Positions 14,477 to 55,714 are shown, numbered from the whole stretch's first letter. The stretch is DNA of 58,103 bases, filler included, from Dirinaria sp. TL-2023a (GCA_051941275.1; 4 parts of 4 records of this genome joined end to end with filler, not necessarily neighbours in it); one strand, 5' to 3'. The notes: generated by a model not told the origin, from the sequence alone. A program made the numbers and translations.

Positions 14477-14576
14477 NNNNNNNNNNNNNNNNNNNNNNNN
14501 NNNNNNNNNNNNNNNNNNNNTTAATTAATTAANNNNNNNNNNNNNNNNNNNNNNNNNNNNNNNNNNNNNNNNNNNN
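14477..14576. other. Artificial contig-joining spacer
   Basis: 44 N + TTAATTAATTAA (stops in all six frames) + 44 N. Confidence 0.99.
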
Positions 14577-29045: not shown

Positions 29046-29145
29046 NNNNNNNNNNNNNNNNNNNNNNNNNNNNNNNNNNNNNNNNNNNNTTAATTAATTA
29101 ANNNNNNNNNNNNNNNNNNNNNNNNNNNNNNNNNNNNNNNNNNNN
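29046..29145. other. Artificial contig-joining spacer
   Basis: 44 N + TTAATTAATTAA + 44 N. Confidence 0.99.
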
Positions 29146-35773: not shown

Positions 35774-37189
35774 ATGTCTTCAAACGCTCTCATACCCTTC
35801 CTAGTCGCGATGATGCTTGTCACCGGCGTCTGCAATACACTGCTCTCGAAGTACCAGGTACGATGCGAAGCGTCCGAGCCTCCATCATTTGCTGACCCGT
35901 CAAGGATCTACAATGTGTTCGTAATTGCGATTCTCCAGACACAGAACAGTGGCAACGCTTTTCGCAGCCGGTCATACAGACGTGAGACGCCCTGATCCTC
36001 CCTGTAATGTAGCTGAGAGAATTCTAGCGCGCAGATGTTCATCGGAGAAATGGGTTGCTGGCTAGTAGTAGGAGGCTTCGCCCTGTTCCGTCGATACCTT
36101 GCGAAAGATGCACCTCTTTTTCGGGGAGGCTACCAACCTGTCGACGGTCACGAAGAGGACATAAACTCCGATGGGGAGAGCGAGCTACTGGACGACTCAT
36201 TTTCAGCACGGAACGCAACCAATCCGGCTGCAAAAGCATTGGTACCAAATGCGGACCAGCGGCGACCACTAGTCGGACTCAGAGTTTTCATGTTGGCTCT
36301 ACCGGCATGTTGTGACATCACTGGCACTACTCTGATGAACGCGGGACTCCTGTTCGTCGCCGCCAGCATATATCAAATGACCCGAGGGGCCCTAGTGCTA
36401 TTTGTGGGCCTCTTTAGCGTCATCTTCCTTCGCCGAAAATTATACATTTTTCACTGGTCGGCACTTTTTATTGTCGTACTTGGTGTCGCAGTTGTCGGCT
36501 TAGCTGGTGCTATAGCCCCAAACCCACAAGCACAGCCAGAGCCGAGGTCGCTGGTTGAGGCCGGCCTGATTGCTGTTCGTGATACAGCAGACCATGCCGG
36601 GGCGATCGCAAAGACTCCTGAGGCCGTTCAGACAGTCATTGGAGTTCTCATGATCGCTGGTGCTCAGATATTCACGGCAACACAGTTCGTACTCGAGGAG
36701 TGGATATTAGAGCACTACGCCCTTGAGCCCTTGAAAGTTGTGGGATGGGAAGGCATTTTTGGATTCCTGGTCACTATCGTTGGCATGATAGTCCTACATC
36801 TGGCTATCGGGCAAACGGCTGCTGGCCGATACGGCTATTTCGACATGGAAGAAGGATGGAGAGAGATCACACAATACCGTGCGGTTGCCGTGTCGTCGGT
36901 CCTCATCATGATCAGCATCGGGGGTTTCAATTTCTTTGGCCTCTCTGTGACGCGATCTGTCAGCGCCACGGCGAGGTCAACCATCGACACATGTCGTACG
37001 CTCTTCATTTGGATCGTCTCTCTAGCTCTAGGCTGGGAAACATTCAAATGGCTACAGATCCTTGGTTTTGCTCTCCTGGTTTATGGGACTTTCTTATTCA
37101 ACGAAATTGTGCAGCCACCATTGAGAGCATGTGTGCGCCAACAAAAGCACGAAGAACTATTACCCGAGGAACCAATAGAGCACATGTAA
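35774..37189 (+). CDS. SLC35F6-like / nucleotide-sugar transporter (DMT superfamily) membrane protein
   Basis: MMLVTGVCNTLLSKYQ, FSQPVIQT.QMFIGE, LPACCDITGTTLMNAGL, ASIYQMTRGALVLFVG, QFVLEE, VGWEGIFG, FNFFGLSVTRSVSATARSTIDTCRT. Two introns; divergent from SEC39. Confidence 0.9.
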
Positions 37190-39411: not shown

Positions 39412-41128
39412 CTTGACCAGGGATCATGAATCAACAGCCCGAGGACGGACCGAGCCATTGCTACTTGGCACTCTCGGCACTACTCTCGGCACCCTCGGCG
39501 TTAGAAAGCCATCTTCCGCCTAAGGTAGATCCTTTTAAGACTTGTTCTTCAGTACACGATTACTCCTGCATAAATTGTAGTACATTAACAAATCTGTCCT
39601 CCTGTCTACGCAGAGACGATCACATTAGTAGCTAATACCACAGGTCTACGATGGTTTGCGTGTACATGAAACCCACGTCTATGGAAATGATAGCTTGGCC
39701 GTGTTGGGGCTTTCTTCAGGTCCCCTCACGAGCTTCTCACCTCAGGGAGTCGAGGGCTCGAAGAATGCCATCAGATTCTGATGCAATTACATCTGAACCT
39801 TTGAATCCATGCGCAGATGATCGATTGTTTGAGTCAGGATTCCGAGCTCCAGTGCAAGACACCGAAAAGATATTCGCAAGGCTGCGTACCATGGAGGGGT
39901 GACCGTCATGCACAAACATGTGGTCGACTTCAACGTACAGGAATCTATTGATAGGTCCTTGCAAAAGTCGTAGCCGGACCAAAGATCGGTTAGAGTTGAA
40001 GCGCGGACGCTGCAGAATCAGCGCAGGTCACCTGTTTCTCCCAAACCACGTGTTCCACATCGCGATCCCTTTTGAAAGACTCGCATAAGACATGGGTAAG
40101 AAAGAAATAGATATGCGAGCTAATCTAGACGTCGGAGTAAACCGACCTATCAGCGCATCAAGGAAGCCGGCTTTCTCAGTAATGCCTGCCGATCCCCCAA
40201 CTTTGTGCCCTTACTCGCCTCAGCTGTTTACGGCGGAGCAACAATGTTGCAGGAACTTGTCCACCAAATATCACACTGCCCTGTCCGTGAATACCTGTCG
40301 ATATCATTGAAGATGTTCGCTATTGGCCTCGTCGTCACATGTCGCTAGAAGAATTTTTTTAGCTGGTTCTTAGATTGTTTCATCTTGACGAAATGCATGT
40401 ACGAGTACTGCATCCCCAACTGCCGGAACGCACATTCTGGTTATCATTCCATTCGAAGGAACGCCGCAACTCAGAGGCACGACACAAGAGCAGTCATGAG
40501 GTGCAAACAAGAAACAATCCAAGCACTTCGTGGAGATCAACTAATGTACATGAAATTTCATCCAAATCATATCATGCGAAACAAGCGCCTCAACTCTACA
40601 CATTGTCGAAGACATTGAACATCAGAACAATTGTGGCTGCACTTAGGCTCGACATACGGAATAAGACAAGCGTCATGGATTGATAGAAATCTCGACGTTG
40701 CTGTGCCTGAATTAGACATTCATGGTGCAGCGAATGCATGCGGTCGTGTCTTCTTCATATCGACTCGGCTCAGCCGCAGATAACAGTATACGGCAAAACA
40801 CTGCATGATGCTGCAGTAGGGGCCAGCCCTTGAAACCATTGATGCTTGCGCTAGAATATGATCTATCGTACTAAGGCTGTCACAGACCACGACCTACTCT
40901 GTGATGGTATAATAAGAGCGTCCGGTCCTTATTCCTAACATCAAAGCTCTCAGATCAAGCGACTTACTGGGAAAGCGACTGGGCTGATCCAAGCTAGACC
41001 TTCAGCTGCCAGCAATCTCGCGAGAAATATATTTCCCAAGACGCTAGAAGACGCTAAACGTCATCTTTCCCTCCAGAGCTTGCTCATCTATAGCTCTTCC
41101 TGAATCTCCTCGCTAGCAGTCTACAAAT

Positions 41129-43575
41129 ATGTCTAACAGCAATAGCGTGGAGCAGAAGGGTGCAATACGCTGGGATGAAAAGAGTAGAAGGTTGGTAATA
41201 TTGTATTCGCTGCTTACGAAAATTTGGCTAACGACATGGAGTGAAAGCTCTACATCGAGCAACGCCAATGTTTGTACTACTCAAAGCCCATCACGGAGGG
41301 ACGAGACGCTCGTCACAAAACCGGTGATTTGGACCCGTATCAAAGCATTGTGGAATATTCTATTTCGCGCGTTCGGGCTCTCACTGATTTCGCATGCGTT
41401 TGGCTCTCTTCGACATCCGGTCGGTAGAGGACTTCATGAACCAACGAAGATTGCTATGAACCAGAATCGATTTGTGGCTTTGCTACGTGCACTCATTCAT
41501 ATTGTCCCAGTAAGCGTGGCTCTATGTGTGGTTATTCTCAATTGGAATACCTACTACGTCGGTACTACAGCATATACCCAAGCTACATACCAACTGCTAG
41601 CCAAGATCCATGAGCTCTTGATGCAAGCATCGATAGCTGCCGTTGTTTTCTGCTGTATTCGGACCGAGATGGCTCTTGGCTCAGGCATTCCGTTTGGACT
41701 ACTGTTCTCTGGATTGCAAATTACTCAAATAAGTTATCTGTGGTCGATGGAATTCTGGGCATCTTTGACGAGTGGACTTCAACGCACTTACCGAAGATAT
41801 CTCCTCCTCCTGCTCATACCGTTAAGCATTCTTTTAGCAACCGTTTGCGGACCATCTAGCGCAGTGTTACTGGTTCCGAGACTTCAATACTGGCCAGGTG
41901 GAAGCACGGATATCTGGATCAATGCAACTGCAAGCGATCTGTGGCCTAATCAGTGCGACTCAGCCCAGCTTCCTCGAAATGCGTTTAGCTGACCCCAGTA
42001 TAGGACCGATAGCCGTTCAATTCCAGAGTCATGTTCAGTCGCAACCACAGAGGAGATAACAGGTGTTTGTCCTTCCGCGCAATGGCCAAAGATCCGCGAT
42101 TACTTGTACTTGGAGAGATATATGTTACCCTCTGCATACAAAGCCCAGTTCTATGTGTCTCAAGCACCGAATAAGATCGAGCTAGCCGACAGAAGCTCGG
42201 TCCGCTACTTGACCATCACTGAAGATGAATCGTATTTGGGGCTAGGACCTCGGCCGGTTACAGCTATGACGCAGCATGCCGTTGTCGCAGACGCCCTAAC
42301 GAATACCGGGGCTCTATGGTTTCTGTCTCTGACTAATGTAACAGCGAGGAAAGGTCACGGACATCCCTTGTCAGACCAATCAGATGCGTTGCACACTATA
42401 TCCGACAGTTATCTGCAGCCGTACAGTACTGTAGTCTGCATACCAGACTCGATATCGAATGTCAATAGCTCACGGCCGCTTGCGTTGCCGAGGCTCCCGA
42501 ACGCCAATCCTGCTTCTCTTACCAATGGGAACTTCAGCTACGATGGCTGCGAACCCGGAACTGAGGAAATCGCTGAGACGATTGCACATCCGACAATTAC
42601 GCGAGAGCAAATATACAACATACCACACTCAACCAGGGACTACAGACTGGAATGGCTCGAGCTGGATTCTGAACATTTTCAAGGGAGCAGTATCGGAGCT
42701 GTGGTTTTCTTGCCTCGGGCCCAAAAAAATGCGACACAGGATGTGATACTTTGCAATTTGTCTGCCGGATGGGGTACATCGACGCTCTCTATGAGTACAG
42801 TGGGCGGTGGTGACACCGCAGTATCCAGCAAAGTCACCCATAAGGATAATCACAGTACTCGAGCGCAGCCAATGAAGCTGACGAATATCCCGGCGTACGA
42901 GACCACTGAAGCTGCGAATACCGGAGATTACTTTGATTATCATCTCCCAAATTACCCTCGACAGCTAATCAATATTACAAGAGAATGGGCCAAGTATCTA
43001 AATCCCACCATAGCAGGTCTGAACACTTCAGTGATGAATACCCTACTGCAACAGCAATTATTCTCCTGCACTCCTCGCGTTACGGTCGAGCAAGCCCTGG
43101 TCAGCTTAGTTGTCAACGGGCTTGCCAAGACCGGTGCTGGAAGTCAATTACAAGGCAAAGTTCGAACGGTGGGCCCCGAAGGCGATCAAGGACTTGACGG
43201 AAACTATTGGTTGTCTGGCAAAGGCAACGTCTTTCAAGTTGATCATCCAAACGAAGACTGGCTCAAGTTTCACGTGACGTCAACATTAGAAGGTTACGGC
43301 TACAATGCCTTCGAGGTGTCTCAAAGGCTTGCAATAGCGTTCTTGATCATTTATTGCATTTTGGCGCTCGGCCACATGGTATACGCGATTGGTACCGGTA
43401 AGCCGCTTATCATTCCCACTCGTGACCCCGGTGCCAGAGGCGATTCTAACCATATTCTAGGGATCAGCTCGAACTGCTGGGATTCCATAGCAGAGGTGAC
43501 TGCGCTGGCCATGAACTCCAGCCCCACTGCAGCGCTACGGAATACGTGTGCCGGTATTACAGAGCTACATATCTT
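41129..43575 (+). CDS. Uncharacterised fungal membrane glycoprotein (N-terminal TM bundle, large extracellular loop, C-terminal TM), 3'-truncated
   Basis: QLLAKIHELLMQAS, GIPFGLL, SYLWSMEFW, GPSSAVLLVPRL and C-terminal AFLIIYCILALGH...WDSIAEVTALAMNS.P...LRNTCAGI. A GT-AG intron near 41953-42003 joins the two ORFs in frame. Confidence 0.8.
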
Positions 43576-43675
43576 NNNNNNNNNNNNNNNNNNNNNNNNN
43601 NNNNNNNNNNNNNNNNNNNTTAATTAATTAANNNNNNNNNNNNNNNNNNNNNNNNNNNNNNNNNNNNNNNNNNNN
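43576..43675. other. Artificial contig-joining spacer
   Basis: 44 N + TTAATTAATTAA + 44 N. Confidence 0.99.
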
Positions 43676-43717: not shown

Positions 43718-44242
43718 GATTGCGATCACAATGTAGATGCCGGGGCGAAGGAAAAAAGTCTGAGGTTGAGGTAGCTTGCGCTGAAGGGGGGGAATGGAGT
43801 TGGTGTTCTTACTGGGTTCTTCTGCAGAGCTCAATCGCTTCCAAGCATGAGGCTAAAGGCTTGGCACTTGGTCGTGGCGCGCTAAACATTTAATGTCACG
43901 ACAGTATCCCGTTACCTACTTCACCTCACGGTATACTGGTATAAGGTAATTAAAGTGAGGTAGAGCTACCTTGGACTTTTAAAGATGGATCTTCCCATAA
44001 TCTATCATGTGTCCTTCCATCAAATCACTTGCATATGGTCACGCTTGATATGGATGAGCTTCGACATTGCAGCCTGGAATTGTTGCTATTTAAGGTAGTC
44101 TGTGGATAATGCAGATAAAACCCTCCGGCTGCATCGATCGTACACCTCCTGGGCTCCGATCATGCTTGCTAGAGATGCTTTTCTAATAAAACTTTTCGAA
44201 TGCCTGCTTTTCTAAAGAGGCTTCTTCGCCTTGGAAGTTACG

Positions 44243-47200
44243 TCATGTGCATGACGAGAACTGTAAGATAGAGTCAGCCAACACATCAAGTGACAAGATC
44301 ATATTCTAGTCGACTTACATCGTTTGGGTTGTTATCGATGATATATGTGGCTGGTCCGATCGATGGCGCCTGCGACGATGTCTCGGACGGAGGTGGAGCG
44401 GAGCTTGTAGTTGGCGTCTTTGGCGGCGATGATGATGATGTCGTGGACGGAGTGGGAGCCGGGCTTCCATTGGGCTTCGGCGGCTTTGGAGTTGCAACGA
44501 AGCTTGTAGTTGTCGACGACGTCAGGCGCGATATTAAGGCTGATGGTATGGGTGCTGGAACTAGGGGTCTCTTTCGTAGTTTAGGTAGAGGTTTGTCGGT
44601 TTCACCCTGACGCGCCAGCAATGGACGTCCATTCAAGACTGTCTCATTCTTGCCGTCGATTGAGGATCCGAACTCTTCGTTGAGCCTCACGTGTCTCGCT
44701 GCCTTGGCCATTGGGACGTTGCATCTGATCTCACGAACCCCATTGTACGCTCCCCAAAACGCATCATGTCCGGGGTCCCGGCGCTTTAAATTGTTCAGCT
44801 GGTTTTTACGGCCCATCGCTACGTTCCCTGGCGCGGGTTGCGATTGGGCAAAGGCTGGAGACGTAGAGAAATAGGCGGCGAGGGCAGCAACTTGCGGTGC
44901 TGTAAGTGATGTGCCACCGTCGAAAACGTATCGATTGACAATTGAAGGATCTGATGTTGGCACATAAAGATTTTCACCAATGGCAGAGATATCTATGAAT
45001 CCCTTTAAAAAAGGATCTCTGCCGTCCGGTGCACTACCAGCGAGGGATTGAAAACTCGAATATGTTCCACTTGTCGTAAAAGAGCCTACTGTGATCAGTG
45101 CATTGTCAGGCCGACCGAAACGTTGAGGCGTGAGGGCGCCCAATGCCCCGCGCGTGTTGCCAGCACAGATGACCGTTACGATATCGTTGTCCCAGGCGGA
45201 TGCAAGGATCGGTAGGAAGAAATCAGACCTTGAAGGAGGATTTATGTTATACCTGGCGTAGTTGACATGACCGTTGTTGTCAATCTGCGATGGATAATCA
45301 GAACCTGTCGAACATTATCAGTAAGCGCTATAGTTAGTCTGACCCTTCGAGGTAAAGGGGACTGCAGATCACTCGTGTAAGCAACTTCGATTTGCAACGC
45401 TTGCTTGACCATCGGAATAGCTAAGAGATGCCTTGCCATACAAGTGTCATATAATTTACCGATGGAAGAACGAGCGGATGAGCTACAAAGCGGCAGGAGT
45501 TTGGCAACACCACTTCCGTACCCTAACAGATACAAGTAACAGAAGTGAACCTGGAAGTACTCACCTCCACTATAATTAATGACAGCTTTACCCTTGCGGC
45601 CCTTGTTGATAATGTCCTGTATCGCCCATCTCCAGGCCTCCAATATTAGGCCTGTACTCGCACCTGGTATGTCCGGGGATTTGAATTTTACCACAACCAG
45701 GCCTGCTTTCGGTGCTACGCCGTTGACTGAGCCACCTACTACCGATGCGACCTGTGATCCATGGTCTAGGGCGTCATCCCACTGCCCTTCATTATTGGCA
45801 TTTGGATGGTCTGGATCTTTCACGATGTGTCCCTCAATAGGTGATGGAAACGGGCGAGTAGAGAACTCCGGGTGCGCGATAGCTAAACCGCTATCTAACA
45901 CATACACATATGAACCTTCGCCCATCTTTTCCTCGGACATATAGGGCTGTGAGTTGAGGTATTGGGAATCGCCGTAATCTCGGTCCCTCCGTAGCGAAAG
46001 CGCTTTTTGGTGCAATCTCGCCTGCTCGGGGTTGTTCCGCAAGACGTTGAAATCGTCTCGGCGGTCAAGTCGATGGTCCTTGGGTGTCTGAGAATGGTCC
46101 CGGTCCAGTACATGGTGGGTAGGGTCGGAGATATTGTGTATCTCTCCATCCCGAGCACGAAAATCCTGTGCTATGTTGACTTGATTTAGAACAATTTGGT
46201 CAACGATTGGATGTTTCGAAGCCTCTTGCGCTTCGGCGAGAGTCATTTTACCATAGTAGACTTGGTCTCCTATTCCGGGAAAGACTGATCGTGGACCTGC
46301 CCCTTTATCGGGCAATGAATTTACAAATTTATCGAACGCCTCCACCGTTGTACCACGAACGGTGTTAAGGATCCAAGTCTCGCGATCTCCAGTACTACTG
46401 GAGGAAGCTGCACTTGAAGATGATGTGGCAGTTGAAGGTTTAGGACTATGCCAGTTGGTGATCAGTGCAACCTCTGCTGGCACTGCTAGTAGTGCTAGCT
46501 GAGCGGCGAGTTTGCGATACTGCGAGATGCCTTGCGCAGGCCTAGATATCCAAGTACCAAAGCCTTCCGCTAAGTCGCGAAGTAGGTTCAGAGTATTGCC
46601 AAGTTTTGATTTGATTTGGGAAACGTCTTGAAGATCCTGTCCGCTGAAAGACTGCAGCTCGATGTTCTCCGCAGCGGTATCTAACGTCCCAACATCTTTA
46701 AAAGCATCAGCGAGAGCACCAGCAATATGGGAGACATCTTCAGAGCTAGGAGATGCATTATCAGCCAATTTTGTAGCTGAATCCCCCGCGTCCTGGATGG
46801 AGCCTAGGGCGGCGAAAGCAAGAGGTTTCAAGGCGTCGATTGCACCGGATCCCGCAGTTGGGAAGGATGCTGGCGGTTTGGCGGCACCTGTTATGGTTGT
46901 GAAGTGGGAAATCGTGAGACCCACATTGGGCCCACCTGTGGTAGTCGAGGAGGCAGATGAGGTTTTCGGTAAATGTGGGATGAAACTAGACGAGGTTTTC
47001 GACAAATGTGGGATGAATGTAGACGAGGTGGTCGGTAAATGCGGTGGATTCTTGCTTTGCTGAAGGCTTAAGGCCTCTGTGCTGGAACCAACAACCACCT
47101 GTGAAGCGCCAGGTGCCAGGGATATTGGTGTACCGGAAACTATGATGTGACCGCCCGGGCTGAGCGTCTGCCCGCCGATCACGAATGCGGAAGCAGAATT

Positions 47201-50200
47201 AGGCGTGTATGTTGAGCCTCCAATGGTCAGATAGCCTGGTGCAGCACCTGCAGGAGTGGGCTTCACAGCTTGTGTGACGGAGCCAACAACCACCTGTGAA
47301 GCGCCAGGTGCCAGGGATATCGGCAACCCGGAAACCGTGATATGACCGCCTGGGGTGAGCGTCTTGCCCCCAATAACAAACGCAGAGGCAGAATTGGCTG
47401 TATAAGTAGAGCCTGCAACCGTAATAACTGGACTAGCTGCTGCTGTGGCATGTCCCACAGCTTCAGTGCTGCCGTCGACGACTACGACAGAAGCGCTTGG
47501 ACCTAACGAAATCGTAGTGCCTGCGATTGTTAATTGGCCGCCAGGGGTTAGAGTCTGCCCGCTAATGACGAAGGCAGAAGCTGAATTGGCTGTATAGGTG
47601 GACCCGGCGATCGTCATTACTGGGACTTGGCCTGGACCTTGGTCCGGGCCAGGACCGGGTCCAGCAGGAGCAGCGCTGCCGCCAGTTACGCAATCGGCAG
47701 AAACTGGATGGAGAGTGGCTGGATTGTTCGGGTTGTCCAGAGGAGCTCCCGTACCGGGAGGCGCAGGCACGATGTGTTTACAGCTGTTCTTCCAGACAGT
47801 GATAGCTCCATCCTCCGGATCGATTTCCACGATATCCGCGCGGCCATGAGCAATGTGTACTCGGGCAAACAAGGTGTTAGCAGCAGAGACGCCATTACCG
47901 GGGACGATATTTCGAGGATAAGGTACTTGACGCACCCATCTGCTAAAGCGTTAACATAAGGAAACCAAGACAGTCTGGAACGCCAAGCTGAAAAAGCCCC
48001 AGATATGAAGTAAAATACGAACCCTACTCGAGTGGAAGGGTCCTTATTGAGCCACACAACTGCCGATCCGTCCTGAGGATGGATCCATATGACGTCTGCC
48101 TTGCCATCTCCATCGATGTCACTATGAAGTCCTTGTCAGATTTTGCTGTCTCCCGCTTCGGAGTTAAGGCTCAGGTACTCACGCAAAACGTAGGTCGTTG
48201 GGATTTCCAGCGTCCAAGTCGATGGGTACTTCGGTGAGCGCAGTCCATTTCCAGATCCTAGCGCAAGATTATAATCAGTCAGAGATTGGATGGGCAGAAA
48301 ATCGGGCTATGTACAGACGACGTGAGATAGTGCGGTTAGTAGCCGCGAGCCGCTCTCCGGCTTCTTAGGGAGATGCCGATGCCTCTGCAACATGCAAAAG
48401 GTAATGTATATCGACTTACTTTCGATCACCCTGGAAGTCATTCCGCCAGATAGACATTCTCGAAACCTCATCAAGCCAGATGAGGTCTGCACAGCCATTG
48501 CCGGTCAAATCTGCAAATCTCACACCGGCCGGAGGGCCTCTACTTGGCGATATTGGGCCGACAGGCGTCCACACCCATCCTCGAGGCTTGGCCTTTGCAT
48601 CGGCGCCTTCGTTGATCCATGCTTTCACCGATCCATCCGGATTAACCACAAGCATGTCCGCCTTTCCGTCGCCGTCGATGTCTTGTAAGATGACACTCTC
48701 ACGCTTAGCACCCACACCCAAAGCTATAGGCTTACCGTTGTTAGCGACCAAGAACAGCCATCCGTACTGTAGCTTTGGGTGAGGCCCTTTGTTGATATAA
48801 AGGGTGATTTGACCTTCTTTGGTAATCATGATCTTGTCGTCGAGCCCATCTATTGGAGCCATTGAATTAGTCATGCTCAGTAAAAATAATATCACGATCA
48901 CGACGGTTTCCCGGCTTTGTACTTCCAAAAAATCGAGACAACCAATTTTTCGCTAGCTGAAAAGGGGTTAAACTCACCTCCATCCAGGTCAGCCATACGC
49001 GTTGAATCTCCCGCTCTACTGGTATCAGCGCGGCCATCATTCTGAAAGACTCTTGCCGCTCCATTGTCGTCGTTAACCACGACATAGTCTGCTTTACCGT
49101 CTCCATTCAAGTCGCCTATACGAATGTCCTGCCAATGAACGCCTATATCTTTCTTAATGTGGGCTTGATGGACCCAGATTGGGAAACCCTCCTTGAGCCC
49201 GCGTACATTGAGGAAGCCGGTAATACCACCCTCAGGTCTCCAGATCAGGACATCATCTCGTCCGTCCCCATTAATGTCCGCGAGTGTAATGTTACTTGTC
49301 CCCGTTCCTGATGCGATTTGACCGACTTCGTGTAGAAAGATTTCTTCTGTATGGAGTTTCCCAAGGTTCAACCAGCAATGCAAGGAGCCTTTAGGTCCTC
49401 GAACAAGTAGATCATCGCGGCCATCTCCATTGATGTCGCCAAACAAGATGCTGTTGCGGTTACCACCAGGAACGCCGTCGGAAATCCGGTGAGGGCCATT
49501 CCACTTCCAGCCACCATGTTCCAAGTATTTATTGAACCAAACATCAATCCGGCCTGTCTTGTCATCAATGCACACATAGTCGGCCGTTCCCGAGCCAGTT
49601 AGATCGGGGAGCCTTAAGCGGGCTGGGGGGCATAGTCCGCTAGCTACTGGCTTCCCATTGTTGGCCGGCTGCCAATTATAGTGTGTTTGGTCTCCTTCGC
49701 TAAGGTGAACAATCAGTCCTCCGGAATGGGGATCAATCCAGACATAGTCATCTCGACCTTATAATGCGAACTCATTAGAATGACAGCCGCTCCATTTCAA
49801 GGGACACCAAGCGATGCAACAAGATGTAAAAGGCACTCACCATCGCCATCTAGGTCTCGGAATTGAACTGATCGAGCGTCTAAACCCTTCTTACCAATAC
49901 CATGAAAGACTATACCGCGTTCAGTCCAGCTCGGAAAGAATTTGGCTGGGCCATTTATGCCAACGCCGTGGGTCAATCTTCCAGTCTCATCCCAGATGGG
50001 TAGACTAAGACAGTAATGGCCAGGAAAGGGTCCATTTCGGGTCTGTAAATCTGATCCCCGCGCTGCACCGCATATTGGATCGGGTCCAATGGGAGGTTTG
50101 ATCCACCCCTCTGCGGCGGCTTCCTTGATGCCCGTATACCCTGATGACGGCATTAGCATCTCCTTCAAGGCACGTCGACCGTGTGCTGAAGTTTGATGCA

Positions 50201-51086
50201 CTTACAGTGGTTCGCCATCAACTTGTAACCCTCGTCGGTGGGATGGATCCCGTCATCACGCAACTGATCGCCTTCAATAGTCCTCATATCAACCACGAGG
50301 ATATGGTGGCCTTGTTTGACACGTTGAGCAACGACTCCAGGTATTGCATTGTTAAAACGCTCAATGCGTGCTTGCACTTTTGGGTCGCGTGCCTGGATGA
50401 TCTGCGCTACAAGAACCGCAGCATCCGGGCATGCTGTAACAATTTCGTCAAGCAAGGCACCAAGGCGATCCGGGGCACCTTCCTACATGTCAGCTACAGT
50501 ATCAACATGCGGTATCTGGACAACTTGCCAACTTCAGAACTTCCAGGGATCGGAGGATCACGGTCAAGGTCATTTGTGCCCTCATGTAGCAGCACGATAT
50601 TAGGTCTAAATAGAAGTGCAGGTTTTGCTGTCTCTGCGATTTGGCTTTTCGTCGGATCAGCTTTCGACTCATTCTTCTGCACGATGCCAAATACCTGATG
50701 GTATATCCAGAATAGCCCTCGTTAAAGTTGTCTGCCATGGTACCCTCTCGTAAAGATCCAACATACTGAATCTTACTACCATTCAGATTGTCTTGAAGAA
50801 ATAGTCGGTAACCATTGCCATCGCTCTGTAACAAGGCTGTCAGCCCCGACAGAAGTCGATCTAGCCTCTCGGTATTCCACTTACACTACCTTGTCCTATG
50901 GTGATAGACGATCCCAGAGGGAGAATCCGCAGCTCTGTACCTTGCTCAACATCATCACGACCCGACAAGTGTGCTACAACGCAGGCTATTCTCAAATATC
51001 AGCCACAGCGCTTACAATTAACGAACAGGCAGTTGATACTCACAGATAGTGTTGATAAGCACGTTGTATGCAAGAAGGTAATTCAT
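44243..51086 (-). CDS. Large secreted multidomain protein: SGNH/GDSL esterase (CE3-like) + 10 FG-GAP/VCBS repeats + beta-rich repeats + helical domain + I9-like prodomain + subtilisin S8 protease (~1,900 aa, 13 exons)
   Basis: Signal MNYLLAYNVLINTISCVVA. SGNH blocks RILPLGSSIT, NEGYSG, HEGTND, DGIHP. Repeated D-x-D/N-G-D-G-x-x-D. S8 triad VYVLDSG (45893-45895), DHGSQVAS (45761-45763) and GGTSLTAPQVAALAAY (44907-44909), with oxyanion AGN. All 12 introns are GT-AG and preserve frame. Confidence 0.85.
47068..47620 (-). repeat. Three ~60-aa coding repeats (ITVAGSTYTANSASAFVIGGxTLTPGGxITVSGxPISLAPGASQVVVGS)
   Basis: Protein repeats, with an identical DNA stretch ccaacaaccacctgtgaagcgccaggtgccagggatat at ~47088 and ~47284. 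Confidence 0.93.
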
Positions 51087-51439
51087 GGCGTATCGCTTTC
51101 TGCTGGTGTAGAGAGAATACGAAAGGGAAAACAAGAAAACAGAAAAGGTCCGCCTTCAACCCGGGGCCAGTGTTGATAAATCATCGTGAACCCGTGTGAA
51201 TGGATCTTCGGACGTGACAGAGTCCAGTATGTGTTAGCTGTTTCGAGTGTTATACGGAGAAGCTGCCACTCCTTGCGTGTGTTTACTAGGTTGACTCTGC
51301 AATGTAGGTAAGAGAAAGTACCTGAAGCCCGCGGTGGGACACCTTTTTCCATTGCATCTCGGTCTCATGTATCACGTAAAAGTGCTACTACTACATGGAC
51401 CTTTCTCCTAGTTGAACCATACAGCGAATTTCCAAACAT

Positions 51440-52948
<1,509 letters not shown>

Positions 52949-53431: not shown

Positions 53432-55714
53432 ATGGCGGAGGAGAATAAATGGAAGTCTAGTGGTGACGCTGAGGATGGGGAAGATGAAGAGGAGCTTGAC
53501 GAGACTGTACACCTTTGAAACTGCCAAGAGCACGGACGAATGGCTACTTACCAACGGCTAGGCTTACAAAACCGCCAAAGACGCGGTACTGTTAGTTATC
53601 GAGGTCAGCTCGTCAATGCTTACAGCTTCACCCGCGTCGAACTCCAAAGGGGGTCCCACAGATACTGCGACATTGGCCGCCTTGAAGTGCGCTTACTCGC
53701 TAATGCAGCAGCGTATCATATCGAATCCTAATGACATGATGGGTGTCATGCTCTATGGAACAGAAGCGTCGAAGTTTCAAGGGAATGACGACGCTACAGT
53801 TGCATATCCTCACTGCTACCTCCTGACTGACCTTGACATACCATCGGCGGATGACGTCAAAGCACTAAAAGCACTTGTGGAAGACGAGGCTGAGTCGAAG
53901 AGCTTACTTGTGCCTTCACATGAAAATGTGTCAATGTCTAATGTTCTTTTCTGCGCGAACCAGATCTTCACTACGAAAGCCCCCAACTTCTCATCGCGGC
54001 GGCTATTCATTGTTACAGATAACGATGACCCTCATGCACGTGATAAGCAAACGAAGAATTCCGCTGCAGTGCGAGCCAAGGATCTCTACGACCTGGGCGT
54101 GATTATCGAGCTGTTCCCTATTTCCCAACCGGGGCATGAATTTGACCGAGAGAAATTCTATGATGTAAACCTTTACGGTCTCCCACTTCTCTCTGGGGGA
54201 CGGCAAAGTTAAAATTTTACAGGACATAATATACAACGCTGCTCCCTCCGACCCTTCTGCGCCCGCGCCTCTAACCACTATAAATGCACCGTCCTCAGCG
54301 AAAGACGGCATCAGCCTTCTGAATTCCCTTCTCTCGTCCATTAATTCCAAGGCTGTTGCACGCCGCGCCCTTTTCTCCAATTTACCGCTGGATATCGGTC
54401 CTGGTCTCAGAATTTCTGTCAAGGGATACATCATATTCAAGCGCCAAGAACCAAAACGCAGCTGTTACGTCTGGCTTAATGGTGAAAAGAAGCAGATTGC
54501 TACGGGCATGACAACGCAGATGGCAGAAGATACAGCACGCACCGTTGACAAAGTAGAGATCAAGAAAGCATATAAGTTCGGGGGTGCGCAGATAGCATTC
54601 ACGTCGGAGGAAGTGCTAGCGCTGAGACATTTCGGCGACCCTGGCATTAGGATCATTGGCTTCAAGTCTATAAATTTGCTGCCATTTTGGGCAAACCTGA
54701 GGCCTTCTACCTTCATTTACCCCTCCGAGGATGGCTATGTGGGATCCACCCGTGTCTTTTCGGCACTGCAACAAAAACTTCTCAACGATAAGAAGATGGG
54801 CGTTGCTTGGTTTGTGGTGCGCAAGAACGCTACGCCTCAAATAGCAGCAATCTTACCCGGATCGGAAACATTCGATGACAACGGTATGCAAGCGATGCCA
54901 CCTGGCATGTGGATCACGCCTCTACCCTTTGCAGACGATATCAGACAGAATCCGGAAACGACTTTAATCCGAGCACCTGACCAATTGGTAGACCTAATGA
55001 GAAAGGTGGTCCAACAGTTGCAATTGCCGAAAGCGCGATATGATCCTTCAAAGTATCCAAACCCATGTAAGTCTTCTGATACGAAGAGCTTGAAGGGAAG
55101 AGACGATTGACACAAACTGCTAGCCTTACAATGGCATTACCAAATATTGCAATCCATAGCTCTCGACGAAGATATTCCGGAAAACCCGGACGACAAGACA
55201 ATACCCAGGTGGAGGCAGATCGACAAGGTAGAAGATTTCCCAGCTCGTGACGCAATACGTCTCGTTCTGGATTTTCTTGCTAAATATGACGACAGCGCGC
55301 AGGCTCATACGTAACAGACTGGGGCGTAGAACTAGAAGCGCAAACCAGGGCCTGGGAAAAGGGGAATAACAGTTCCGCTACCGCTGCTCAGGCGAAACGC
55401 ACAGCTGCGGGCAATACTGAATTGCCCGAGCGCGGTAACAAGCGAATAAAGACAACCGATACTGAGGAGGGAGTGCGAGAAGAAGAAATGAAGAAGGCTT
55501 TTGATAGAAACGAGGTTGAGAAAGTGAGTTCCTCGCACGCCCTGGACCATATCTAGGGATCACATTCAGTAGTTTAGAAATGTTTACTAATTGATGTTCC
55601 TTAAAGTTTACGATGCCAATGTTAAAGGCGTGGTTAGCCGGAAAAGGGTTAAGTGTCAGCGGCAAGAAGGTAGATTTAGTGGACCGAGTCGAAAGTTGGT
55701 TCGAACGAAAGTGA
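53432..55714 (+). CDS. KU70: ATP-dependent DNA helicase II subunit 1 (Ku70)
   Basis: [108 protein letters not shown] and a C-terminal SAP domain ([23 protein letters not shown]). Confidence 0.97.

Follow-up and report, generated by a model that had tools for sequence, protein, structure and literature searches.

Two questions are raised by a stretch of lichen-fungal DNA in which an esterase, a propeller and a protease appear to be encoded one after the other: whether these parts belong to a single protein and, if they do, how such a protein would work. The stretch in question, here termed the window, comprises 58,103 nucleotides (nt) of Dirinaria sp. TL-2023a (GCA_051941275.1); it is eukaryotic DNA with short introns, and all coordinates given below are positions in it. 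A sequence-only reading had proposed that a 13-exon gene at 44243 to 51086, read on the minus strand, joins a signal peptide, an SGNH esterase, FG-GAP repeats, three beta-rich repeats, a helical domain, a prodomain and an S8 protease into a candidate self-processing polyprotein. The analysis presented here indicates that the locus is very probably a single fused gene and, with less assurance, we favor its interpretation as one lichen-ascomycete gene for a secreted multi-domain pro-enzyme that is cut between its prodomain and its protease. The parts of the gene are as follows (pLDDT, predicted local distance difference test; CE3, carbohydrate esterase family 3):

44243..51086, minus strand: whole gene, 13 exons and 12 GT-AG introns, product of 1,908 residues (splice model and translation)
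50960..51086, minus strand: hydrophobic N-terminus, residues 1-23; the range crosses intron 1 (51043-50986)
50121..50932, minus strand: SGNH (CE3-like) esterase, residues 33-228, from Pfam and PDB sequence matches; crosses introns 2-5
47753..49907, minus strand: FG-GAP/VCBS region, residues 300-845, from Pfam FG-GAP_3 and motif positions; crosses introns 6-10
45565..47939, minus strand: exon 11, a single 792-codon open frame from the tenth FG-GAP blade to past the S8 His
47054..47626, minus strand: three beta-rich repeats of about 62 residues each, residues 888-1078, read in translation
46913..47053, minus strand: Ser/Thr-rich linker, residues 1079-1125 (Tandem Repeats Finder)
46457..46852, minus strand: four-helix bundle, residues 1146-1277, from AlphaFold2 helices (model residues 25-156, pLDDT about 80)
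46187..46381, minus strand: prodomain, residues 1303-1367, predicted beta-alpha-beta-beta-alpha-beta (model residues 182-246, block-mean pLDDT 79-88)
46046..46186, minus strand: prodomain-protease linker, residues 1368-1414, predicted disordered (pLDDT <50 at model residues 250-291)
44658..46045, minus strand: S8 catalytic domain, residues 1415-1790, Pfam PF00082 in both halves; split by intron 11
44246..44657, minus strand: Ser/Thr/Pro-rich C-terminal tail, residues 1791-1908, from translation; crosses intron 12

The splice model, obtained by joining open frames through GT..AG introns, places the exons as follows:

51086-51044, 50985-50885, 50825-50695, 50644-50533, 50482-50206, minus strand: exons 1-5
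50140-49841, 49757-48978, 48849-48420, 48257-48183, 48121-48023, minus strand: exons 6-10
47939-45565, 45304-44319, 44260-44243, minus strand: exons 11-13

This model begins with an ATG at 51086 and closes with a TGA ending at 44243, exactly the limits first proposed, and it reproduces the 13-exon structure: all 12 introns (50-260 nt) are of the GT..AG type, and the coding sequence of 5,727 nt, given as 1,908 codons, has its sole stop at the end. The acceptor of intron 3 (50694-50645) is AAG, and this intron restores the expected spacing of SGNH blocks II and III; intron 10 (48022-47940) was picked because a metagenome open reading frame (ORF) described below, P0019, reads the same peptide ...VVWLNKDPSKRSGWVRSVPYPR... 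uninterrupted, and intron 11 (45564-45305), at 260 nt, has a TACTAAC-like branch site. ORFs in other frames within the gene reach at most 189 residues.

The case for a true fusion is centered on exon 11, which, as the sequence-only reading had stated, runs uninterrupted from the last FG-GAP repeat to the Asp and His of the protease; its 792 codons (47939 to 45565) are free of stops and encode HGRADIVEIDPEDGAITVWKN and the three beta-rich repeats as well as the helical segment, the prodomain and, of S8, the Asp (VLDSG) and the His (DHGSQ). The same junction is found in P0019 (ENA, 852 residues), which is 51% identical over residues 2-791 of the exon 11 query and unites in a single ORF two FG-GAP blades, the beta repeats, the helical segment, the prodomain and the Asp and His of S8. 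Two further metagenome ORFs, P0020 (69% identity) and P0075 (42%), cover the helical-prodomain-S8 module.

Longer relatives were recovered with the FG-GAP exon as query; 8,000 candidates were scored in this search, 2,696 of them matched at E≤1e-3, and 120 of these matches were listed. The prodomain is present in seven of these 120, and the S8 module also in six of those seven (BLAST). All seven are "hypothetical proteins" of 1,505-1,840 residues from metagenome-assembled genomes of Teloschistaceae lichens, colinear with this gene: P0184 of Wetmoreana brouardii (1744 residues), P0264 of Gyalolechia sp. (1835), P0203 of Squamulea sp. (1678), P0223 of cf. Caloplaca sp. (1840), P0178 of Teloschistes chrysophthalmus (1769), P0191 of Seirophora lacunosa (1787) and P0199 of Variospora sp. 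(1505). Judging from these sequences, the fusion layout is not unique to the gene analyzed here and is common to several lichen fungi. At the nucleotide level, lichen-metagenome contigs that are about 88-92% identical cover positions 44222-51145 colinearly. The comparison of frames with this metagenome relative concerns the indels that were listed, 12 further indels lying outside the listing, and those in exons and at contig joints leave the frame unchanged (+3, -12, 105 letters in place of 87, and -84 net); the single-base indels in exon 11 are adjacent and cancel each other (45843/45848 and 45566-45574), and the remaining ones listed (+2, +1, -5, -2 and a 142-nt skip) lie within introns 11, 10 and 8. 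Word-index searches with exon 11 for proteins of at least 1,387 residues returned only beta-repeat proteins (16, with no Pfam enzyme domain in the ten scanned) or nothing; these blanks are false negatives, because the FG-GAP-exon search did find long S8-bearing relatives. A scan of JGI metagenomes with the helical-prodomain-S8 alignment gave 439 pattern matches, none of which was confirmed.

Every domain listed in the sequence-only reading is found, and no catalytic residue is missing from them. In the S8 domain, Asp1465 (VLDSG), His1509 (DHGSQ) and Ser1707 (GGTSLTAP) follow each other in the Asp-His-Ser order, with Asn1624 (CAGN) as the oxyanion residue; Asp and His are kept in all ten aligned sequences, and Asn and Ser in all seven that reach those columns. 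Scanned alone, the N-terminal half matches Peptidase_S8 at 2.7e-10 and 40.5 bits (profile positions 1-117) and the C-terminal half at 6.1e-6 and 26.2 bits (positions 139-252), the cut-off of this family (PF00082) being 21.8 bits; the 902-residue ORF scanned whole gave no S8 match at E≤0.01. The top PDB sequence matches of the N-terminal half are alkaline protease 1 of Aspergillus fumigatus (8gko, 1.1e-15), a Penicillium protease and proteinase K, and a search of the ESM Atlas returned generic S8 clusters only.

What precedes the protease was approached through an AlphaFold2 model of 46924 to 45566 (453 residues, 11-row alignment), which includes only the N-terminal half of S8 and lays out, in order, a helical bundle, a disordered Ser-rich stretch, the prodomain unit, a second disordered stretch and the first half of a subtilase fold. 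In this moderate-confidence prediction the prodomain is placed directly before the catalytic domain and docked on it. Structural comparison by VIA-align gave site-1 protease (8uwc, Z 9.2), 3whi_A (Z 9.1, chain residues 6-216) and EpiP (3qfh_D, Z 9.0), and the propeptide is included in these matches, since the model range begins at residue 179-181 each time. In a Foldseek search the best match was the alkaline protease 8gko (5e-4; 35% identity over 127 columns), followed by unautoprocessed pro-subtilisin E (3whi; 8.3e-4, 316 columns). Because residues 1287-1382 match no Pfam family at E≤10, Inhibitor_I9 (PF05922) included, the prodomain is a propeptide by its predicted fold and its position, not by its sequence. 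Within the disordered linker that follows lies Arg1409-Arg1410 (46063-46058, minus strand), the second Arg of which is invariant in the aligned sequences; the residue ahead of it is Arg or Lys in eight of eleven and Pro in the other three. The pair is a plausible candidate for a kexin-type or autocatalytic cleavage site, and we put the chances of processing at the prodomain-protease junction at about even. The notion of a self-processing polyprotein thus stands as far as its elements are concerned, namely a propeptide-like fold before S8 and an invariant Arg that is mostly part of a dibasic pair; cleavage itself is something that we infer.

In the N-terminal half of the protein, a hydrophobic 10-mer follows Met1 (Kyte-Doolittle 2.29), and the N-terminus is likely to be a signal peptide. 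In the esterase, the four SGNH blocks are intact, with Ser41 (LGSSIT), Gly88 (EGYSG), Asn116 (GTND) and Asp206/His209 (DGIHP), and the block columns are nearly invariant in an alignment of 79 sequences. Pfam GDSL/SGNH matches fall on the exon 4 and exon 5 pieces (Lipase_GDSL_2 at 4.3e-7 on the latter); in single-exon scans PF00657 (Lipase_GDSL) scores 23.7 bits for a cut-off of 23.6, and PF13472 (Lipase_GDSL_2) 31.0 for a cut-off of 32.9. The closest PDB chains by sequence are the acetyl esterases 5b5l (3.7e-6; also 5b5s) and 2vpt (1.3e-5), the latter of which is matched over the whole domain by the SGNH part of the relative P0185 (5.4e-19). The SGNH part probably deacetylates carbohydrate. 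The FG-GAP region matches FG-GAP_3 (PF13517) at 3.6e-19 and 1.5e-14 (69.5 and 54.8 bits; cut-off 26.9). Ten calcium-binding-type repeats had been claimed, and nine of them are canonical, with D-x-[DNT]-G-[DNS]-G-x-x-D loop motifs between residues 317 and 751; the tenth, at residue 814, is degenerate (HGRADIVEID). By sequence, the PDB entries closest to the FG-GAP exon are 9oee ("Secreted esterase") and the propellers of TcdB2 and YenB, and the matches to these last two are confined to their FG-GAP-like propeller. Identity with a TcB-like Tc-toxin component was considered and rejected: PF12256 scores 21.7 and 18.1 bits, below its cut-off of 24.8, with no stretch passing alone, and no RHS or SpvB family was found by Pfam in any scanned piece. 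The sub-threshold TcdB_toxin_midN matches are due to the FG-GAP repeats, and the toxin-like role that had been suggested found no support here.

The combination of SGNH and FG-GAP domains is a scaffold found in many Pezizomycotina and in actinobacteria (Frankia, Micromonospora, Streptosporangium). Of the 120 relatives listed, every one matches in the FG-GAP region and 114 match in the SGNH part as well, with 29-51% identity to exon 7; the helical-prodomain-S8 cassette is absent from 113 of them, and the three beta-rich repeats from every one. Extra domains in relatives of the scaffold comprise GH43 (P0192, P0251), GDPD (P0171, P0177, P0186), EEP with ricin lectins (P0241) and, in P0176 and P0208 (about 1,040 residues), a trypsin domain at residues ~53-229 ahead of SGNH and FG-GAP, which makes them another serine-protease fusion to this scaffold, in a different order. 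A genome scan with P0176 found three loci, which match only its SGNH-FG-GAP part; the neighbors at one of them (a short-chain dehydrogenase, a histidine kinase, D-Ala-D-Ala ligase and alanine racemase) give no hint of a substrate. Among the Fusarium members of about 1,400 residues, some 480 residues without an assigned domain lie ahead of SGNH, and P0189 (Fusarium fujikuroi FFUJ_14670, 1436 residues) has two Pfam GDSL_2 stretches.

A FastTree phylogeny of 109 rows (108 of the 120 matches and this protein; P0168, a public model from this locus, and 11 matches covering fewer than 650 residues were left out) separates the fungal branch from one of bacterial and unassigned sequences, which also holds a single long-branched fungal row (P0280). 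P0176 and P0208 cluster with the bacterial branch. Within the fungi, a lichen clade of 15 (support 92) contains this protein and all seven S8 forms. The nearest relative by its N-terminal part, P0182 (52% identity), has a C-terminus unrelated to that of this protein. It shares a Cys-containing motif of about 79 residues (1180-1257) with residues 482-560 of P0139, a protein built of beta repeats and a helical bundle (47% identity, E 1e-9). This common motif is, at the level of sequence, evidence of module shuffling, and C-terminal modules appear to be exchanged within the family, since P0182 carries the Cys motif of P0139 in the place of S8. The idea of a scaffold with swappable C-termini is borne out in part, by P0182 and by relatives that group with actinobacteria or come from unassigned sequences and have GH43, GDPD, EEP with ricin, or an N-terminal trypsin.

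Taken together, these elements can be arranged into a proposal for how the protein is built and matured. Its first 845 residues represent the SGNH-FG-GAP scaffold, with a CE3-like esterase that probably acts on acetylated carbohydrate. In a lichen-fungal lineage this scaffold is extended at its C-terminus by a cassette in which a variable linker is followed by a four-helix bundle, a prodomain of subtilisin type and an S8 domain resembling proteinase K. The protein would be secreted, and the internal prodomain would help S8 to fold and hold it latent until the disordered linker is cut at the conserved Arg (Arg-Arg 1409-1410), by autocatalysis or by a kexin-type protease. Such a cut would release an esterase-propeller piece of about 1,400 residues, ending in the prodomain, and a protease of about 500 residues, and the two might afterwards work on one common surface that carries glycans and proteins.

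Two other accounts deny that there is a fusion to be explained. An esterase-propeller gene followed by a separate protease gene starting inside exon 11 could have been merged by the gene model, and the public annotation of the locus does end at 594 residues: P0168, from a Dirinaria sp. metagenome-assembled genome, is 100% identical to exon 7 and corresponds to residues 1-581 (48978-51086, minus strand). After residue 581, however, it simply ignores the GT donor of intron 7 and continues until it meets a stop, from which it follows that the deposited annotation is cut short. The open frame spans the junction here and, at 51% identity, in P0019, and seven independent annotations join the same parts. 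Moreover, of the 14 Met only Met1 has a hydrophobic stretch behind it; since no internal Met is so placed, it is unlikely that an internal start gives rise to a protease secreted on its own. Although no RNA dataset matched the gene in a search of sequencing datasets (the sole match was a DNA dataset, a lichen metagenome, with 7% of the gene's words), we regard such a merging artefact, which the sequence-only reading had already discounted on account of the long exon, as very improbable. A chimera of assembly is harder still to credit, to the point of being negligible. It would be in keeping with a source that appears to be a metagenome-assembled genome and with the fact that the contigs of the ~90%-identical relative break at the Ser/Thr-linker repeat (46697-47024), yet contig 3 of that relative (47024-48270) bridges FG-GAP to the beta repeats, the contigs cover the whole gene colinearly, and the same order recurs in P0019 and in the seven long proteins.

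The two remaining accounts accept the fusion and question its maturation or its activity. The protein might stay whole, the prodomain and the bundle serving only as folding aid or spacer, so that the protease would be tethered within a single multifunctional enzyme and there would be no polyprotein. The lack of a sequence match between the prodomain and Inhibitor_I9 and the Pro-Arg found in three of the eleven sequences at the conserved Arg, where the others are dibasic, speak for this, and we consider it unlikely rather than remote. In subtilases, however, the S8 active site is normally blocked as long as the propeptide has not been cut off, and the predicted prodomain can be aligned with the propeptide part of pro-subtilases that are still unprocessed and has a disordered linker of about 45 residues behind it. 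Alternatively, the S8 module may be no working protease at all, being a binding or regulatory pseudo-enzyme, or may only mature its own precursor. The domain is certainly very diverged, and Pfam misses it in six of seven whole-protein scans of relatives; the conservation of Asp, His, Asn and Ser in every aligned sequence reaching those columns and the fact that both halves exceed the Pfam cut-off when scanned alone make us view this account as improbable. The pro-enzyme interpretation has itself to contend with several observations that weigh against it. The AlphaFold2 model on which the prodomain depends is of moderate quality (mean pLDDT 68; predicted template modeling score 0.47), and the prodomain has, as said, no Pfam counterpart. 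The C-terminal half of S8 retrieves no PDB chain by sequence at E≤1, and whole-protein Pfam scans flag S8 in only one of the seven Teloschistaceae relatives (P0203). SGNH block I reads GSS, with Ser in place of the Asp in the GDS of most relatives. Both P0182 and P0185, the nearest and next-nearest relatives by the N-terminal part, are without the S8 module, and in an IQ-TREE analysis of 39 chosen rows the union of this protein with the S8-bearing Teloschistaceae clade has support below 80; an approximately unbiased test does not reject that union (p 0.706), the group having been named after the first tree was seen. The absence of a matching RNA dataset belongs here as well.

If the preferred account of a cleaved pro-enzyme is adopted, its interest resides in the arrangement, since each domain is familiar and the combination is not. 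A subtilase prodomain located some 1,300 residues inside its precursor, behind an esterase and a propeller, amounts to an unusual zymogen design, which, among the sequences seen here, occurs only in lichen-forming fungi and in the three metagenome ORFs. If processed as proposed, the protein would be a concrete and expressible candidate for the remodeling of extracellular surfaces by the mycobiont. Surveys of lichen-fungus secretomes probably undercount such proteins, because the annotation truncated this gene to 594 residues and Pfam misses S8 in six of the seven relatives. It is tempting to go further and to see the cassette as a lichen-lineage invention for the targeted delivery of a latent protease, whereby the cleaved esterase-propeller piece would hold on to the protease by means of its C-terminal prodomain, bring it to acetylated glycan surfaces (the wall of the photobiont, the matrix of the fungus itself or bark) and set it free on arrival. 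We hold this extension to be doubtful; were it true, the N-terminal trypsin fusions of P0176 and P0208 would point to a general coupling of deacetylation and proteolysis. The attack on a host, photobiont or competitor that had been envisaged for the protein found no support in the analyses presented here.

Between the propeller and the prodomain, no Pfam family covers the three beta-rich repeats, which also go undetected by Tandem Repeats Finder at the DNA level. In a search of representative proteins with exon 11 (2,249 proteins at E≤1e-3, 150 listed), the beta-rich repeat (GSTYTANSASAFVIGGQTLTPGG...ISLAPGAS) is the sole region matched by most of the 150. This very widespread element has the look of a hitherto undescribed repeat of secreted fungal proteins. 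The Ser/Thr linker is encoded by a 33-nt tandem repeat present in 2.6 copies (46955-47041). The four-helix bundle has structural matches only to generic and designed bundles (Z ~12), and the Wetmoreana brouardii protein contains two helical-bundle copies (residues ~902-1030 and 1110-1240) and no beta repeats. The linker region differs from one family member to another. At the other end, the Ser/Thr/Pro tail lacks a hydrophobic end, is absent in the Teloschistaceae relatives and, in the ~90%-identical metagenome relative, differs in length by 28 codons in frame.

The gene lies in an ordinary chromosomal context with housekeeping genes and is not part of a gene cluster. Its neighbors are a two-exon ferrochelatase gene (51516-52948, minus strand) and a Ku70/80 gene with N-terminal and beta-barrel domains (53562-55110, plus strand); a nucleotide-sugar transporter gene lies farther off (36017-37189, plus strand). 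Rfam and tRNA scans of the region gave no match. Convergent with the gene, two long open frames of 291 and 544 residues without a Pfam family occupy 41117-43627 (plus strand), and the longer one enters a run of Ns. Such runs, 44 bases long, occur in three pairs with 12 bases in between (14477-14576, 29046-29145 and 43576-43675), the last of which lies past the gene's stop, about 570 bases farther downstream.

Full-text literature searches, from the coverage of which subscription journals are excluded, found no description of this layout or of the SGNH-FG-GAP family and no characterized relative of the scaffold; some of the papers that turned up concern other FG-GAP proteins. The claim that the architecture had not been described thus holds for the literature searched, but the layout is already in public proteomes as unstudied hypothetical proteins, in one of which (P0203) Pfam even flags S8. 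These Teloschistaceae proteins share with the present one the order of SGNH, FG-GAP, linker, helical bundle, prodomain and S8 and the catalytic residues, with 39-42% identity over 722-872 residues in the N-terminal block and 28-33% over 349-682 residues in the C-terminal block. They differ from it in lacking the three beta-rich repeats and the long Ser/Thr/Pro tail, and P0199 ends past the S8 His region. The SGNH-FG-GAP proteins of Pezizomycotina and actinobacteria (FFUJ_14670, CH35J_007763 of Colletotrichum higginsianum, and those of Frankia and Parafrankia), to which their sources give names such as "SGNH hydrolase-type esterase", "carbohydrate esterase family 3" or "lipolytic G-D-S-L family", have the same N-terminal scaffold and, in 113 of the 120 listed, lack the helical-prodomain-S8 cassette. 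The closest solved relatives of the esterase, 2vpt ("lipolytic enzyme") and 5b5l/5b5s, which we assign to CE3 in keeping with the source names of relatives, present the same four blocks but are single-domain enzymes of about 210 residues.

For the proposed maturation, the WprA subtilase of Bacillus subtilis, the precursor of which is processed into two wall proteins, offers a working analogy: in both cases a single secreted precursor would give rise to an S8 protease together with an N-terminal product that is no protease. In WprA this N-terminal part is not an enzyme-propeller module. The fungal alkaline proteases (8gko and proteinase K), finally, have the same motifs around Asp and His in the N-terminal half of S8, whereas the C-terminal half has here diverged too far to retrieve any PDB chain by sequence. 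These enzymes are made as precursors of about 400 residues in which the propeptide stands right behind the signal peptide; in the lichen protein, by contrast, some 1,300 residues come ahead of the prodomain.

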